A stretch of DNA of 64,000 nucleotides from Octopus vulgaris (Eukaryota), in assembly GCA_951406725.2 (NCBI GenBank), contig OX597833.1, forward strand, positions 44,020,001-44,084,000. Reading direction: 5' to 3'. The position numbers were made by a program, and so were the translations under genes. Each line of letters opens with the position of its first letter. The first letter of the stretch is position 1. Below, piece after piece: positions 9,161-36,523 of the stretch. The notes beneath the pieces were generated by a model. That model had not been told where the DNA came from and searched no databases. It saw only the letters and a list, made by a program, of their open reading frames with translations.

Positions 9161-9493
9161 CTCTTACAAGTCTAGGTTTTGAAGATCCTCGATTTGTTGA
9201 ACATTTGTAGTATGTCGCATCCTCACAAGAGGGATAACGTTTCGAGCAGGTAACCACACCTTTCTTATCTGCAGGGAACGTAGGTACAGTACAGTCAAAA
9301 CCCTTTCTCCTGGTTACTACCTCAAAAATTCGTGACTTCAATTGAAGATCGATTTGAACAACAACTTCACTGTGATTTCGCACGAGAAAAAACTGAAGAA
9401 GATTTTTTATATCATACCGACATTTTATAGTTAAGAATGTTGCGTGTGCAAAATCAATATTGCTTGAAGGAAACACATCTGCAATCTCAATAA
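9161..9493 (-). CDS. IgSF receptor gene A: Ig domain 1 exon (V-like, 333 nt, phase 1-1)
   Basis: Acceptor tttttttttctatgcag| and donor G|gtcagt. Open frame IEIADVFPSSNIDFAHATFLTIKCRYD…GFDCTVP…VVTCSKRYPSCEDATYYKCSTN. B-strand Cys and D-x-x-x-Y-x-C F-strand motif, plus 3 extra Cys. Symmetric phase-1 exon typical of Ig modules. Confidence 0.88.
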
Positions 9494-9557
9494 CTGCATA
9501 GAAAAAAAAACATAAATCAGAGATAGATGTTATAAAGAAATATATAAATGTAACTAT

Positions 9558-9660
9558 AGAAGAAGAAGAAGAAGAAGAAGAAGAAGAAGAAGAAGAAGAA
9601 GAAGAAGAAGAAGAAGAAGAAGAAGAAGAAGAAGAAGAAGAAGAAGAAGAAGAAGAAGAA
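9558..9660 (+). repeat. (GAA)n trinucleotide tract in the intron just upstream of the V exon (copy B at ~36587-36683)
   Basis: About 34 GAA units, seen directly. Confidence 0.95.
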
Positions 9661-10439
9661 TGACTGAAGTAGGAAAAAGAGAACAAATAAAAATAACGGT
9701 TGTTGTGAATACGGATTACATCTATCCACAAATAAAACTTTGCAGATAGTTTTTGATATTTTGTATTATACTAACATACCTGTGTCGTCAAAATGCCGAC
9801 AGTTTTATTAATCATAGAAAATAGTTCATCAACACAATGGGAAAAACCTTTGATAGATGTCATCAATGTGGTAAATATATGCACATGCACACAATTTAAG
9901 CTCTTCAAGTATTAAATACGGTTCTAACGTCTCAGTTGAAAATAACTTGATACATAATATGTATTTACGGACACACACACGGACTTACACATACACACAC
10001 ACACAGATATATGCATATAAATATATGTATATATATATACATGCATACATTCATACATACATAATTGTATATCATATATAGAAAGAGAGAGACAAATTTA
10101 TATATATAGATATATTGGTTGTTACATCTATATATTAGTATATATGCATGCATATCTATGCATTTATTTATCGAAATCTTTCTGCCTCATTCACTCTCTC
10201 TCTCTCTCTCTCTCTCTCTCTCTTGCTCTCTCTCTAGGAGTCACTGTAAGACGCTTGCTTCCCAGCCATACAGCTGGGAAGCAAATGTCTTAAAATATTA
10301 GAATTTTTGTCATTTGCCTTTTCTGAACAGCCCTACAACATGATAGGATACTGCTCATAGAGACAAAATATAAAAAAAAATTTAATATATTCCTTTAACA
10401 TTTCCTTTCATATTAATATCAATATAATAATTATTGTTC

Positions 10440-32615: not shown

Positions 32616-34353
32616 GTCGTTCTTGTTCTTTGACTTGCTGTTGGTGACTGCAGGGGGATGGTGGGACAGCGTTGGGCAGGGTGGGAGTAGGGTAGGAATT
32701 CACATTTTCGCCTTGATTTCTTCTTTTCCCTCTCTTCCGTTTCTTTGGTGCCGTATTCCATCCATGTTTCTCCTCTGCCACCTGATTATCTTCCTCCTTC
32801 TTCGGTTCTTTTTGCTCACACATGACATCGCAAGCGGTGGAGGTGCGCTTTCTTTCGTTGGTTCCTTTGCGGCAGGTAGAGTGTATCCTGTTTTATGTGC
32901 CCTTTTGACCGCATTTAAAGCAACAGTGAGTCCTGCTCTCCACTAAGACTCTCAGCTTTATATCCTCTCCAAATGTGATGGTTTCTACCATCTTCTCTGA
33001 ATCTCCCACGGCGGCCTGGATTATCATTTCTAGTGCCAATTTCTTTGTGGTATACTTTTGGCCTGGAAGCTCACAACCTTATCTGCCATTTCCAACGGGA
33101 TGGCGGCCACCAGCCAGGCTACACCCACCTAAGGAGATATCTCTTCTACCCTTACCCCAGAAGCACGCCTTCCCAGGTAAATGGTTAGAAAGACCACTTC
33201 ACCCGTTTTGAAGGGAGTCACGCAATGCTACCTGGCCCAAAACTTCGACGCAAAACGCACCTCTCCCGTTGTCTATCTTCTGCTTCTGGCAAGGTAATTC
33301 ACTTCCTTCCATATTCACTTCCTTCAATTCCTCTATGCCTTTTCAACCTGTGTTGTGGTTGCGACCTCTGTTCGCTGCAATTACAAACTGTAAGTTCTGC
33401 ACAGTACGGTTCTTCTTTTAACTCGTTCCGTTGTCTCACTGGAAAGGGACACCTTTACATCGTTCCCCTCAATTTCAAAGATTTCCTTGAATTGATTCAA
33501 TTCTTCCAAGCATACGTCCTCACTTTTATCTTTCGCCGCCTGGAGTTCTTGGCCTCCATTGCCTCGTCAATCTTTTCAAACTTTTAACAAGTTCCCCCTC
33601 GGACGACAAGTCTGAAGAGCTAACCTTTTCAGTTCTCGTCTCCATTACCGCGCCTCCCCTTTCAAACAATGAGGAAAGCGTCAACAAAGCCGCCTTAGGC
33701 AGCAAAACGAAGTGCTGTCGGACACAAAACAGTCAAACACAGTGAAAAACAATTCAAATCACAGAAAAATTCAAGATGTTAACTAGCCTGCAAATGAAAT
33801 AACAACTCTGCTACTACTGACTGACCAAACAACAAATGATTGCTGACTTTATAGTGGCTGAGTCATACCACTTTGCCACGTGAAACGGGGTGCACCTTTT
33901 CTCTACTATTGTGTGTATAGTGTGTGCATGTGTGTATACATGTGTGTGTGCGTGTGCGTGCGTCCCTGCGTGGGTACGTGTGTACGTGCGTTCGTGCATG
34001 TGTATGTATATATAAAGAGAAAGTCCGCTTTTTCCATGCTGTACGGACCTTTTCAATACAATTTCCGCCATAAGGAGGACTTTATGCAAACCATGTCATA
34101 TAGAGTGCATTTAAAGGATGCAGCTTCTTATATCAACTAAATGTCTCCAGAATCTTAAAAAAGCAAATATATAAATTTGGTTAATCGTAATGATATACCT
34201 GTCAAGGATAAACATAATTGTCAATATAACCGTGAGTGGATGTACAAATTTACTGGAAGGTGTAACTTAACCAGAAATATTGTTTCAGGAGACGTTAAGG
34301 AACAAGAATATATAAATGCGTTAAGGAAGATAACACAAAGAAAATTTGTTTAC

Positions 34354-34659
34354 CTGTTATTTTGGTGAGCTGTAGAGTGCGTGATACATTGTATACAGAA
34401 CATGAGATGCTTGAGTTACCAATTTCCCCCTCTCTTATAACGATTTTATTAAGTGACACTGCTGGAGATAAACACTTTCCATAAGGTCGAACATGCACTT
34501 TATTCACATTTATCAATTTGTGGTGTTTTGTCTCATGAATCCATAAAAAGTCAGTAGCGCCAAAAGGTGCACCGATGTATGCTGAACATCTGAAGATCGC
34601 TAACATGTTTACTTCAGCGGGCGGGTTAAGAAATTCAAGTTTCTTCATGTAAGATTTCA
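34354..34659 (-). CDS. IgSF receptor gene B: Ig domain 2 exon (306 nt, open)
   Basis: Same splice sites and length as 7357-7662. Sixteen amino-acid differences; all Cys and the core Trp retained. Confidence 0.85.
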
Positions 34660-36188
34660 CTGAAAAGAAAACAAAACAAAAACAAAAAAAAAACGAATAG
34701 GTGAAGGAGTGGCTGTGTAGTAAGTAGCTTGCTAACCAACCACATGGTTCCGGGTTCGGTCCCACTGCGTGGCATCTTGGGCAAGTGTCTTCTGCTCTAT
34801 CCAAGGGCCGACCAATGCCTTGTGAGTGGATTTGGTAGACGGAAACTTAAAGATGCCTGTCGTATATCTGTATATATATATATATATATATATATATATA
34901 TATATATGTGTGTGTGTGTGTGTGTGTGTGTGTGTGTGTGTATTTGTCCCCCTAGCATTGCTTGACAACCGATGCTGTTTTATTTACGTCCCCGTCACTT
35001 AGAGGTCCGGCAAAAGATACCGATAGAATATGTACTTGGCTTAAAAAGAATAAGTCCCGGGGTCGATTTGCTCGACGAAATGCGGTGCTCCAGCATGGCC
35101 GCAGTCAAATGACTGAAACAAGTAAAAGAGTAAAAAGAGTAAAGAGAATCGAAATATGCTTATCTTCGAACAAAGGGCCTCACAATAAAAGAGTAGTTTC
35201 ACTAATGTAAACTACAATCTTCATACAAAACTAAAACATTTGACAACACTCCAATTATTGTTAATCCTGGACTTTGGGAACTGTTGCTTAGAAGTGGTTA
35301 ACTGTGTAAGCAGTGCTAAGGCTGTGTGGAACCAAAGACTAGCAATAACTCCACAACAGATGAATGACACATTCAAACACGTGTATATTTACTTACACAT
35401 AAGCATGTATTTGTGTGCAATTATATATATTTGCGTGTGTGCGTGTATGTATGTGTGTGTGTGCGCATGTATGAATATGTGGACACATATATAGATACAG
35501 ATATATTCACATACGCAAACATATTTACATACATTCATGCATGCATATACAGACATGCACTTGGCGGTTCGGCAAAAGAGACCAATAGAATAAGTACTGG
35601 GCTTACAAAGAATAAGTCCCGGTGTTGATTTGCTCGACTAAAGGCGGTGCTCTAGCATGGCCGCTGTCAAATGACTGAAATAAGTAAAAGAGAGAAAAGA
35701 AAGAGAGGGACTTAAGTGCATGCTGGACGGTACCTACACCAGAATGTTACGTGCAGTGCCCTACATTTAATGGAGGGAGCACCCAACAAAACAAAGGTTA
35801 TATGGGAATGTATCAACTTTCTCATCAATCATCTAAGAGCGTACGTTGGGTTTTGCTGACCATTGCTGGAGAAGTAAAGAAAAACTTGTGAGTAAGGAGT
35901 TGTTGTGGGCACCAAATCACGGTACCACAGCGACTGGAAGACCACGAAGACATATATACAACAGCTTGCAGAAGATGTTGGATGCCAAGTTGAAGGCCTA
36001 AAAACACTAATGGAAGATCGGGAGTGATGGAGAGAGGTAGTCAGGCTGGCCTGGGCAATTGACCTGACTGGATGAAACTTGTGTTCGATAGTGCAATAGA
36101 AACACGCAATAGAAATAAAAATAAAGACAATGGAGTTGAATACGTGCAAAAAAAGAAACGGAAGTAAAAATAGAACGAGTAAACTTAC

Positions 36189-36523
36189 CTCTTACAAGTC
36201 TAGATTTTGAAGATTCTTCATTTGTTGAACATTTGTAGTATGTCGCATCCTCACAAGAGGGATAACGTTTCGTGCAGGTAATCACACCTATCTTACTTAT
36301 AGAGAGGATGTAGGTGGAGTACAGTCAAAACCCTTTTTCCTGGTTACTACCTCAAAAATTCCTGTCTTTTTTTGATAATCGATTTGAACAATAACTTCAC
36401 TGTGATTTCGCACGAGAAAAAACTGAATAAAATTTTTTACATCATACCGACATTTTATAGTTAAGAATGTTCTGTTTGCAAAATCAATATTGCTTGAAGG
36501 TAACACATCTGCAATCTCAATAA
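36189..36523 (-). pseudogene. IgSF receptor gene B: Ig domain 1 exon with +2 frameshift (335 nt)
   Basis: Acceptor tatacag| and donor AG|gtaagt intact. The exon is 335 versus 333 nt. An extra CT in TCCTCTCTA (~36301-36308) gives TAA; removing it restores …CTPPTSSISKIGVITCTKRYPSCEDATYYKC. Confidence 0.82.

Follow-up and report, generated by a model that had tools for sequence, protein, structure and literature searches.

Diversifying selection at the modelled tip of a variable-type immunoglobulin domain in a clustered octopod gene family

Why should two neighbouring copies of an immunoglobulin (Ig) exon differ more than the introns around them, and differ almost entirely at positions which change the protein? 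The question is raised by a 64,000-nucleotide stretch of the Octopus vulgaris genome (assembly GCA_951406725.2, contig OX597833.1, positions 44,020,001 to 44,084,000; G000:C20:44,020,001–44,084,000 in our coordinates), here called the window, which holds two tandem copies, A and B, of a gene for a small protein with two Ig domains, D1 and D2. An earlier note on this DNA had proposed diversifying selection on a ligand-binding face of D1. Every test which we applied supported selection, and located it at the distal tip of a domain which is modelled as being of the variable (V) type. What such a tip might be in conflict with is the second question, and its answer is far less certain.

Replacement and silent changes in D1

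The D1 exons of copies A and B lie on the minus strand between AG acceptors and GT donors and are of phase 1 at both ends. With the best placement of a 2-nt gap, 31 of 333 bases, 23 codons and 22 residues are different (32 bases, up to 24 codons and up to 23 residues at alternative gap positions), and the single silent differing codon is ACG/ACA. This recount bears out the earlier figures of about 32 substitutions in 23 codons, one of them synonymous. The intron divergence had been put too low, at about 2–3%: the flanking regions differ by 5.0%, 3.8% and 4.8%, and the whole unit by 4.0% over 16.3 kb, so that the excess of the D1 exon over its introns is about twofold. Nor can the 2-nt insertion in copy B, in a short CT run near 36300–36310, be ignored as it had been; it shifts the frame, the protein stops at residue 90, and copy B is therefore a pseudogene, a null allele or an assembly error. 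The three differences reported for the 163-nt leader exon are real, but the first 117 bases of that exon are probably non-coding, since a paralog, c7, has a stop there and the ortholog in O. bimaculoides begins at a later Met. A stretch of about 600 bases behind D1 (window ~8560–9160 and 35590–36188) is unusually uniform among the seven close copies of the gene which are introduced below (~1.3% divergence near the exon, far below other intron parts), which suggests a recent conversion tract or constraint beside the selected exon.

Taken alone, the A/B pair is only moderately significant (NG86 dN 0.125, dS 0.023, Fisher P 0.015), and the strong result comes from the use of all seven copies. With each variant counted once, the intron rate predicts 26.7 non-synonymous and 8.4 synonymous variants in their D1 exons, where 67 and 8, respectively, are observed (binomial P 0.003); the count is independent of any tree and favours the silent reading where there is ambiguity. 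After neighbouring variants with the same distribution had been merged, 61 events in 330 sites were left, as against 356 in the 3403 intron sites kept once columns with gaps or simple repeats were excluded (P 2e-5). Codon models were fitted with custom code, not codeml, on a single tree for each data set, and sites were called by naive empirical Bayes; the codons at the B frameshift and an extra D2 codon in copies c5–c7 were masked. For D1 the single-ratio model (M0) gave an omega (dN/dS) of 4.23, and the M1a/M2a comparison a doubled log-likelihood difference (2dL) of 35.2, with ~40% of sites at an omega near 12. M1a/M2a and M8a/M8 agree; M7/M8 was not used, as M7 had been fitted at a poor optimum. 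Omega was 4.3 without copy B and 4.1 without B and c6, 2dL was 15.1 when D1 was limited to the 95 of 110 codons without a multi-base difference, and codons 41–66 and 67–110 were each significant on their own trees.

Of the informative site pairs 41% in D1 and 48% in the introns are incompatible with one tree, which points to conversion among the copies, and the null was therefore simulated with mosaic trees (near-neutral data, tree reshuffled every 12 codons, 29 replicates). Since four of the 29 replicates went beyond the nominal 5% level the site test is inflated; the largest 2dL among them was 8.0 and the largest omega 0.99. D2 has 32 replacement variants (25.2 expected), 10 silent variants (8.4 expected), an omega of 1.57 (not significant) and a site-model 2dL of 16.9, a signal which is weaker than that of D1 and either real or partly inflated. 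Twelve of 15 other paralog pairs in the family have silent differences, and in all 12 dN is at least 0.8 times dS, even at dS values of 0.3–0.5. Most of the paralog pairs checked had similar or lower silent rates in those codons whose residues are identical.

Four other sources of the signal were rejected for the seven close copies. Assembly or consensus error would also have hit silent sites and Cys codons, and several variant letters (9335, 9347 and 9443) recur in both of the other DNA runs compared. Neutral decay predicts an omega near 1, where about 4 is observed. The signal survives removal of the 15 multi-hit codons, which disposes of multi-base mutation. Conversion from distant donors would raise silent divergence, which matches the intron rate (8 vs 8.4).

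The gene, its modelled fold and its relatives

The gene has five coding exons, all of phase 1, for a signal peptide, D1, D2, a 33-nt linker and a tail. In the window these and the duplication that contains them are placed as follows.

18640..18685, minus strand: copy A, signal-peptide coding part of the leader exon, with phase-1 donor; start as in the O. bimaculoides ortholog
9161..9493, minus strand: copy A, D1 exon, modelled IgV-type fold, five Cys, Leu for the canonical Trp, positively selected
7357..7662, minus strand: copy A, D2 exon, second Ig domain, three Cys, omega 1.6 overall (not significant), some selected sites
1617..1649, minus strand: copy A, linker exon, 33 nt
1..53, minus strand: copy A, last coding exon, hydrophobic tail resembling a glycosylphosphatidylinositol (GPI) signal; extends 27 bases beyond the window's first base
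49470..49515, minus strand: copy B, signal-peptide coding part of the leader exon
36189..36523, minus strand: copy B, D1 exon, with 2-nt insertion, frameshift and stop
34354..34659, minus strand: copy B, D2 exon, open
27693..27725, minus strand: copy B, linker exon
26219..26298, minus strand: copy B, last coding exon, GPI-signal-like tail
1..51289, no strand assigned: tandem duplication, ~1–21074 repeated at ~26246–51289, 4.0% diverged, with differing transposon insertions

The precursor encoded by intact copies is 265–266 residues long; it contains three or four N-glycosylation sequons, and four residues follow its hydrophobic C-terminal stretch. The O. bimaculoides RefSeq protein XP_014786273 (263 residues) has an identical layout. 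By eye and by hydropathy the tail resembles a GPI signal, and is probably exchanged for a GPI anchor. Because the window copies lack a cytoplasmic tail they would not signal themselves, and would serve as anchored ligands, decoys or co-receptors. The variable Ig receptor cluster which had been suggested is thus a tandem octopus cluster indeed, but not, in the window, one of signalling receptors. When four sequencing runs were aligned to the window, intron repeats dominated and no splice joint was found among the matches listed. One run, presumed to be RNA, gave one contig inside D2, and another had a depth of 6.1 at the D2 start and the D1 end, stopping at the exon edge, which is a weak hint of splicing only. 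At the 2-nt insertion of copy B the contigs of these runs break.

D1 was modelled with AlphaFold at a mean confidence (pLDDT) of 92, and the O. bimaculoides ortholog at 90. It is predicted to be an Ig superfamily V-type domain, a beta-sandwich with C' and C'' strands which match those of solved V domains. The best VIA-align match was a V domain (Z 11.7, root-mean-square deviation [rmsd] 2.0, 95 of 110 residues aligned), the top matches being tied (Z ~11–12, rmsd ~2, identity at most 21%) among antibody, T-cell receptor and CEACAM V domains; all 50 VIA-align matches listed were antibody, T-cell receptor, CEACAM or Siglec entries, or complexes with such chains. The best Foldseek match had an E of 1e-3. 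Among 26 paralogs C24, D91 and Y95 are invariant and C97 nearly so, which fits the Cys pair of strands B and F and the D-x-x-x-Y-x-C motif. The canonical Trp of the C strand is missing, with Leu36 in its place in at least 90% of the paralogs. D1 has three Cys beyond the canonical pair and D2 one extra, which might form a D–E disulfide in D1 and an interdomain bond between D1 and D2. As claimed earlier for A and B, all five D1 Cys are fixed, and they are invariant in all seven close copies.

Sequence profiles scarcely recognize the domain. The window D1 has no Pfam match; five of the 26 paralogs match PF00047 at E of 1 or less (best 3.9e-5), one matches PF07686 (0.0077), and the O. bimaculoides ortholog, at 14.5 bits, stays below the cut-off of 26. 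Against PDB the D1 profile matched CEA at E 0.16 over 22 residues only, and the D1 and D2 profiles do not align to each other.

Across the seven copies 48 of 110 D1 positions are variable, strands being assigned from the model. Those of the tip loops BC, C'C'', DE and FG vary at 16 of 22 positions as against 6 of 25 in the base loops (P 0.001), with the loop sets taken from the model and the hypothesis derived from the A/B pair, which is itself part of the data. For A and B alone, 12 of the 22 tip-loop positions differ vs 10 of 88 elsewhere (Fisher P 4e-5). The C' strand (7 of 9) and C'' strand (5 of 7) are variable, and the B, C and F strands little so. On the model the variable surface is therefore the distal tip plus the C'C'' edge. 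The four patches assigned in the earlier note to the BC, C'C'', DE and FG loops do lie there and are not scattered on the structure, and omega stayed above 1 as sequences were added. As for calling these loops equivalents of complementarity-determining regions (CDRs), they do vary, but DE is no CDR in the antibody sense and the C' and C'' strands are equally variable.

A 200-kb region contains all seven D1 exons (89–100% identity), three of them encoded on the minus strand and four on the plus strand, in units which differ by 2.0–5.4%. Copy c6 has a 1-nt insertion in the tail exon which causes a frameshift, and is only 2.0% apart from c7; between the two (C20:44,174,669–44,177,153) is an assembly gap of 100 N, beyond which lie a linker exon and a tail exon, both orphans; a copy may be missing there, or c6 and c7 may be two haplotypes. 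Another orphan, a D2 exon, is found at C20:44,230,862–44,231,214. A tree built from 45 D1 rows, with B left out, groups the other six close copies in one clade, sister to a single O. bimaculoides protein (99/97), so that the seven appear to be co-orthologs of this protein. Focal D1 domains are 50–52% identical to it and D2 domains 65–67%. Best-match D1 identities for 17 O. bimaculoides proteins range over 37–82%, the targets being 26 of the 45 exons, so that low values may miss the true ortholog.

A protein search of the genome gave 46 matches, corresponding to at least 44 distinct V exons on C20 and one on contig C1. Those on C20 form clusters at 43.6–44.7 Mb (at least 29), 0.86–1.10 Mb (at least 11) and 2.85–2.94 Mb (at least four). 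A profile of the 26 paralogs matched 44 proteins among 1.84 billion representatives. The 37 matches with E < 3e-9 comprise 30 from Octopus, one from Argonauta, two unnamed and four which were not looked up, and no strong relative outside the octopods was found in that set. A word-based search from the Argonauta member gave two octopus relatives and no squid, though such a search is weak for distant kin and does not establish absence from decapodiforms. Database entries (e.g., LOC106880713 of O. bimaculoides and LOC115221679) bear automatic names only, “uncharacterized” or “Ig-like domain-containing,” and a full-text literature search yielded no paper on this Ig family nor any match to seven family identifiers, although subscription papers and supplements may mention members. 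The word “immunoglobulin” is missing from the main text of PMC9068888 and PMC13669787. The family escaped notice because it goes unrecognized by Pfam and its genes are run together in the gene models; as an instance it appears to be undescribed, while the kind of system is known from other phyla.

Several other features of the family and of the window were recorded. Public O. vulgaris models P0001, P0002, P0006 and P0007 merge several family genes into false multi-domain proteins. A subfamily of nearly identical copies (L035, L037, L038 and L040; P0006, P0023; C20:44,578,867–44,728,899) has Thr/Pro-rich mucin-like stalks, shows no replacement excess and is the clade best conserved between species (81–82%). 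In the C20 cluster at 0.9–1.1 Mb, P0016 and P0031 have a strikingly His-rich D2, possibly metal-binding, and four V exons at 1.04–1.08 Mb have identical scores. The skin mucus proteome includes a “short-chain collagen C4-like” gene whose LOC number is adjacent to those of members of the P0016/P0031 cluster; in the part searched of its supplement (PMC10138644) none of the family identifiers tried was present. Mobile elements in the window include a long interspersed nuclear element reverse transcriptase frame, interrupted by one stop (51431–53584, plus strand; RVT_1, E 2.6e-31), a Penelope-like GIY-YIG fragment (54573–55097, minus strand), a Helitron-like PIF1 helicase fragment (62539–63009, plus strand) and an element remnant (38458–39156, plus strand) which is also present in copy A's intron. 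Nested inverted repeats of ~450 bases, 81–87% identical, occur at 39954–41440 in the first intron of copy B only.

The transmembrane member of the cluster

One member of the same cluster, LOC115221679 (C20:43.53–43.75 Mb, minus strand), lies 0.4 Mb from the window copies and has a transmembrane segment. Its exons are ordered as leader, frameshifted V and D2; altered leader and V; then leader, V, D2, stalk, transmembrane and tail. There are thus three leader–V units at C20:43.63–43.75 Mb (L085–L097) before one transmembrane/tail set, the middle V being without a D2 of its own; these units are possibly alternative V cassettes or decayed duplicates. An O. sinensis model joins a V that is 93% identical to the middle V to the full tail, and its tail is longer by a segment of 105 residues, in which YENN, a polyproline run, LHYAEL and TPYAET occur. 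LHYAEL fits the consensus of the immunoreceptor tyrosine-based inhibitory motif (ITIM), and its tyrosine is 25 residues from that of TPYAE(T). In shuffled tails the strict form [ILV]xYAxL arose in 22 of 10,000 (0.2%) and the tandem form in 0.9%.

The corresponding ITIM-type exon is present in O. vulgaris at C20:43,575,809–43,576,123 (L109), with 98% identity to the O. sinensis segment and intact splice sites. Read-through of its donor would give TPYAEV, an exact match to the consensus of the immunoreceptor tyrosine-based switch motif (ITSM), and then a stop nine codons on. Since neither the O. vulgaris model nor the Argonauta model nor a retrocopy on C1 contains the exon, it looks optional. 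That retrocopy (G000:C1:165,120,493–165,121,600; L081) is intronless, has a frameshift and a stop in its tail and is annotated as a gene (P0027); it is a processed pseudogene, and its parent must at some time have been transcribed in the germline.

The two intact V exons of LOC115221679 have 58% protein identity and 26% DNA divergence, with silent sites at 19%, whereas the introns around them are ~4% apart and its two D2 exons are 98% identical. The difference includes a 150-base island with ~39% divergence, silent sites included, within homogenised introns. This is an old divergent patch, from BC to C'', which resisted homogenisation.

Readings of the function

A surface protein without a cytoplasmic tail whose tip changes at several times the neutral rate must be in conflict with something. 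We might suggest that the octopod family is a convergent counterpart of the CEACAMs, that is, a set of surface proteins with a selected IgV tip at a host–microbe interface, the tissue, like the ligand, being presumed; on this reading we are evenly divided. The V domain would face away from the membrane, and the BC, C'C'', DE and FG tip would contact a partner in continual change, the likeliest candidates being microbial or parasite adhesins or surface molecules. Tandem duplication would add copies, selection would fix point changes at the tip, gene conversion would shuffle patches and spent copies would decay; signs of birth and death are the seven co-orthologs of one protein, the frameshifts in B and c6 and the orphan exons. 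The optional ITIM-type exon of the transmembrane member could deliver an inhibitory signal, while tail-less copies may act as decoys, traps or adhesion partners.

In PMC8860441 and PMC5112662, the CEACAM locus is described as combining selection on IgV domains, gene conversion, transmembrane members with ITIM or ITSM beside GPI-anchored ones, and change driven by bacteria, with selected sites on the CC'C''FG face. The octopus family resembles CEACAMs and PSGs in its selected N-terminal IgV, conversion among paralogs, lineage-specific birth and death and, as judged from motifs and tails in the sequence, an ITIM-type transmembrane member beside GPI-type ones, and CEACAM1, 6 and 7 N domains are among the tied top fold matches of D1 (Z 10.8–11.2, 5–14% identity). 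The likeness to the N domains is at the level of fold only. The CEACAM N domain lacks an intradomain disulfide, whereas octopus D1 keeps five conserved Cys, and selected sites in the octopus lie at the loop tip and C'C'' hairpin more than on the C and F strands.

Several observations weigh against such a reading. Only 1 of 6 C-strand and 2 of 6 F-strand positions vary, whereas selection in CEACAMs sits on the face to which these strands belong. D1 codons 1–40 are not significant on their own, and in L035/L037/L040 and L026/L027 dN is near dS and flank divergence, with no excess. The tail of the window copies is only moderately hydrophobic (best 15-residue mean 2.05 vs 2.9–3.5 in six other members). 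A loose ITIM consensus arises in 14% of tail shuffles, the strict and tandem patterns having been chosen post hoc, and the Argonauta model does without the exon. The transmembrane tail ends in SAV, resembling a PDZ ligand, and C-termini of this kind are typical of ordinary adhesion molecules. No partner with an immunoreceptor tyrosine-based activation motif was found among the proteins inspected, unlike in paired CEACAMs. Finally, rapidly evolving GPI-anchored proteins are also typical of gametes.

Other Ig systems are less close. SIRP-alpha, Siglec/CD33 and PD-1 are inhibitory receptors with a distal IgV and tandem tyrosine motifs ~25 residues apart, and SIRP-alpha varies at its loop tip. The octopus transmembrane member shares the distal IgV and the tyrosine spacing, and the family the variation at the loop tip seen in SIRP-alpha; a bond between the domains, like that of Siglecs, could join the odd Cys of D1 to that of D2. 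One octopus member was seen with such a tail, however, while most end GPI-like, and homology is at the fold only. Amphioxus VCBPs and gastropod and bivalve FREPs are, according to a review (PMC13428168), germline-encoded, diversified Ig-variable-type proteins with copy-number and allelic variation, a description which also fits the octopus family as germline-encoded and diversified. Its precursors (263–266 residues) hold D1, D2, linker and tail only, without the chitin-binding domain of VCBPs, no fibrinogen domain was found in seven family proteins scanned, and the proteins are predicted to be membrane-anchored, whereas VCBPs and FREPs are secreted. By the features tested, then, the family would be neither CEACAM, VCBP nor FREP.

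The inhibitory-receptor likeness leads to an alternative in which GPI-type copies are polymorphic tags of individual identity and the ITIM member reads matching tags and restrains attack by haemocytes. It would account for an ITIM-type exon in the family, for variation at the loop tip rather than on the front sheet, as in SIRP-alpha, and for the 150-base island of ~39% divergence in the transmembrane member, such as long-lived balanced variants would leave. Allorecognition loci of the Hydractinia Alr type show extreme allelic polymorphism and allele-specific binding, while the present comparison covers paralogs of one assembly. As octopuses are not known to fuse as colonies do, the selective force is hard to see, and ongoing change between species fits an outside antagonist better; we consider self recognition unlikely, if deserving of some weight.

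Related to it is a more elaborate proposal, which we hold to be speculative and improbable, namely that the cluster is a complete octopod variable-Ig locus with an inhibitory receptor that splices several leader–V cassettes to one D2–transmembrane–ITIM tail, and with more than 40 GPI-type self tags or decoys. The idea of cassette splicing arises because the middle V lacks its own D2 and the O. sinensis model joins a 93%-identical V to the full tail.

Reproductive recognition, by surface proteins of sperm, egg, spermatophore or oviduct under sperm competition, sexual conflict or species recognition, seems to us distinctly unlikely. Among gamete proteins it is common to find small surface proteins of GPI type whose omega exceeds 1, and the D1 of the focal copies has diverged further than D2 from the O. 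bimaculoides ortholog. Fast-evolving octopus genes include gamete-recognition and sperm-motility genes, according to PMC13669787. More than 40 paralogs with an ITIM-type member would be unusual for a gamete lock and key, however, and the O. vulgaris Z is chromosome 16 whereas the cluster is on contig C20 (contig and chromosome numbering being unmatched).

A code for neural or sensory wiring of the Dpr/DIP or Beat/Side type, expanded in octopods, is very unlikely. Two Ig domains and a GPI-type tail, here judged from sequence pattern and model, in a multigene family are also the layout of the Dpr/DIP/IgLON proteins (Wirins) and Beats, Dpr in particular (PMC10084454), and the octopus has other clustered expansions of neural adhesion genes (PMC9068888); the PDZ-ligand-like end of the transmembrane member would also suit this use. 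Matched partners must persist, however, so that an omega of 4, 50% identity between orthologs and frequent pseudogenes are not predicted, and the Wirins are pan-bilaterian neuronal proteins whereas this family, whose D1 profile lacks strong relatives outside octopods, was found only there and changes at or above the neutral rate. That there is no selection at all, and that decaying duplicates, distant-donor conversion, multi-base mutations or assembly errors mimic the signal, we find barely credible: the frameshifts in B and c6, the pervasive mosaicism and the gap with orphan exons between c6 and c7, whose 2.0% difference could be allelic, are what it would lead one to expect, but the result survives removal of B, c6 and the multi-hit codons and exceeds the mosaic null, and decay, conversion and error each predict silent or Cys changes, or an omega, other than those observed.

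Snails, bivalves, amphioxus and arthropods are all known to have diversified recognition proteins. A 2026 review of such proteins names none for cephalopods in the part covered (PMC13428168). Should the complete variable-Ig locus prove true, it would give a cephalopod the diversified system for immunity or self recognition which has so far been missing. If the CEACAM-like reading is true, a design of ITIM receptor plus GPI decoys would have arisen by convergence in a mollusc, which would be relevant to disease in octopus aquaculture. At the level of motifs, one member of this family of more than 40 genes could signal; and the family, in several clusters and with the signature of an arms race at its IgV tip, is a concrete test set for cephalopod immunology and reproduction.

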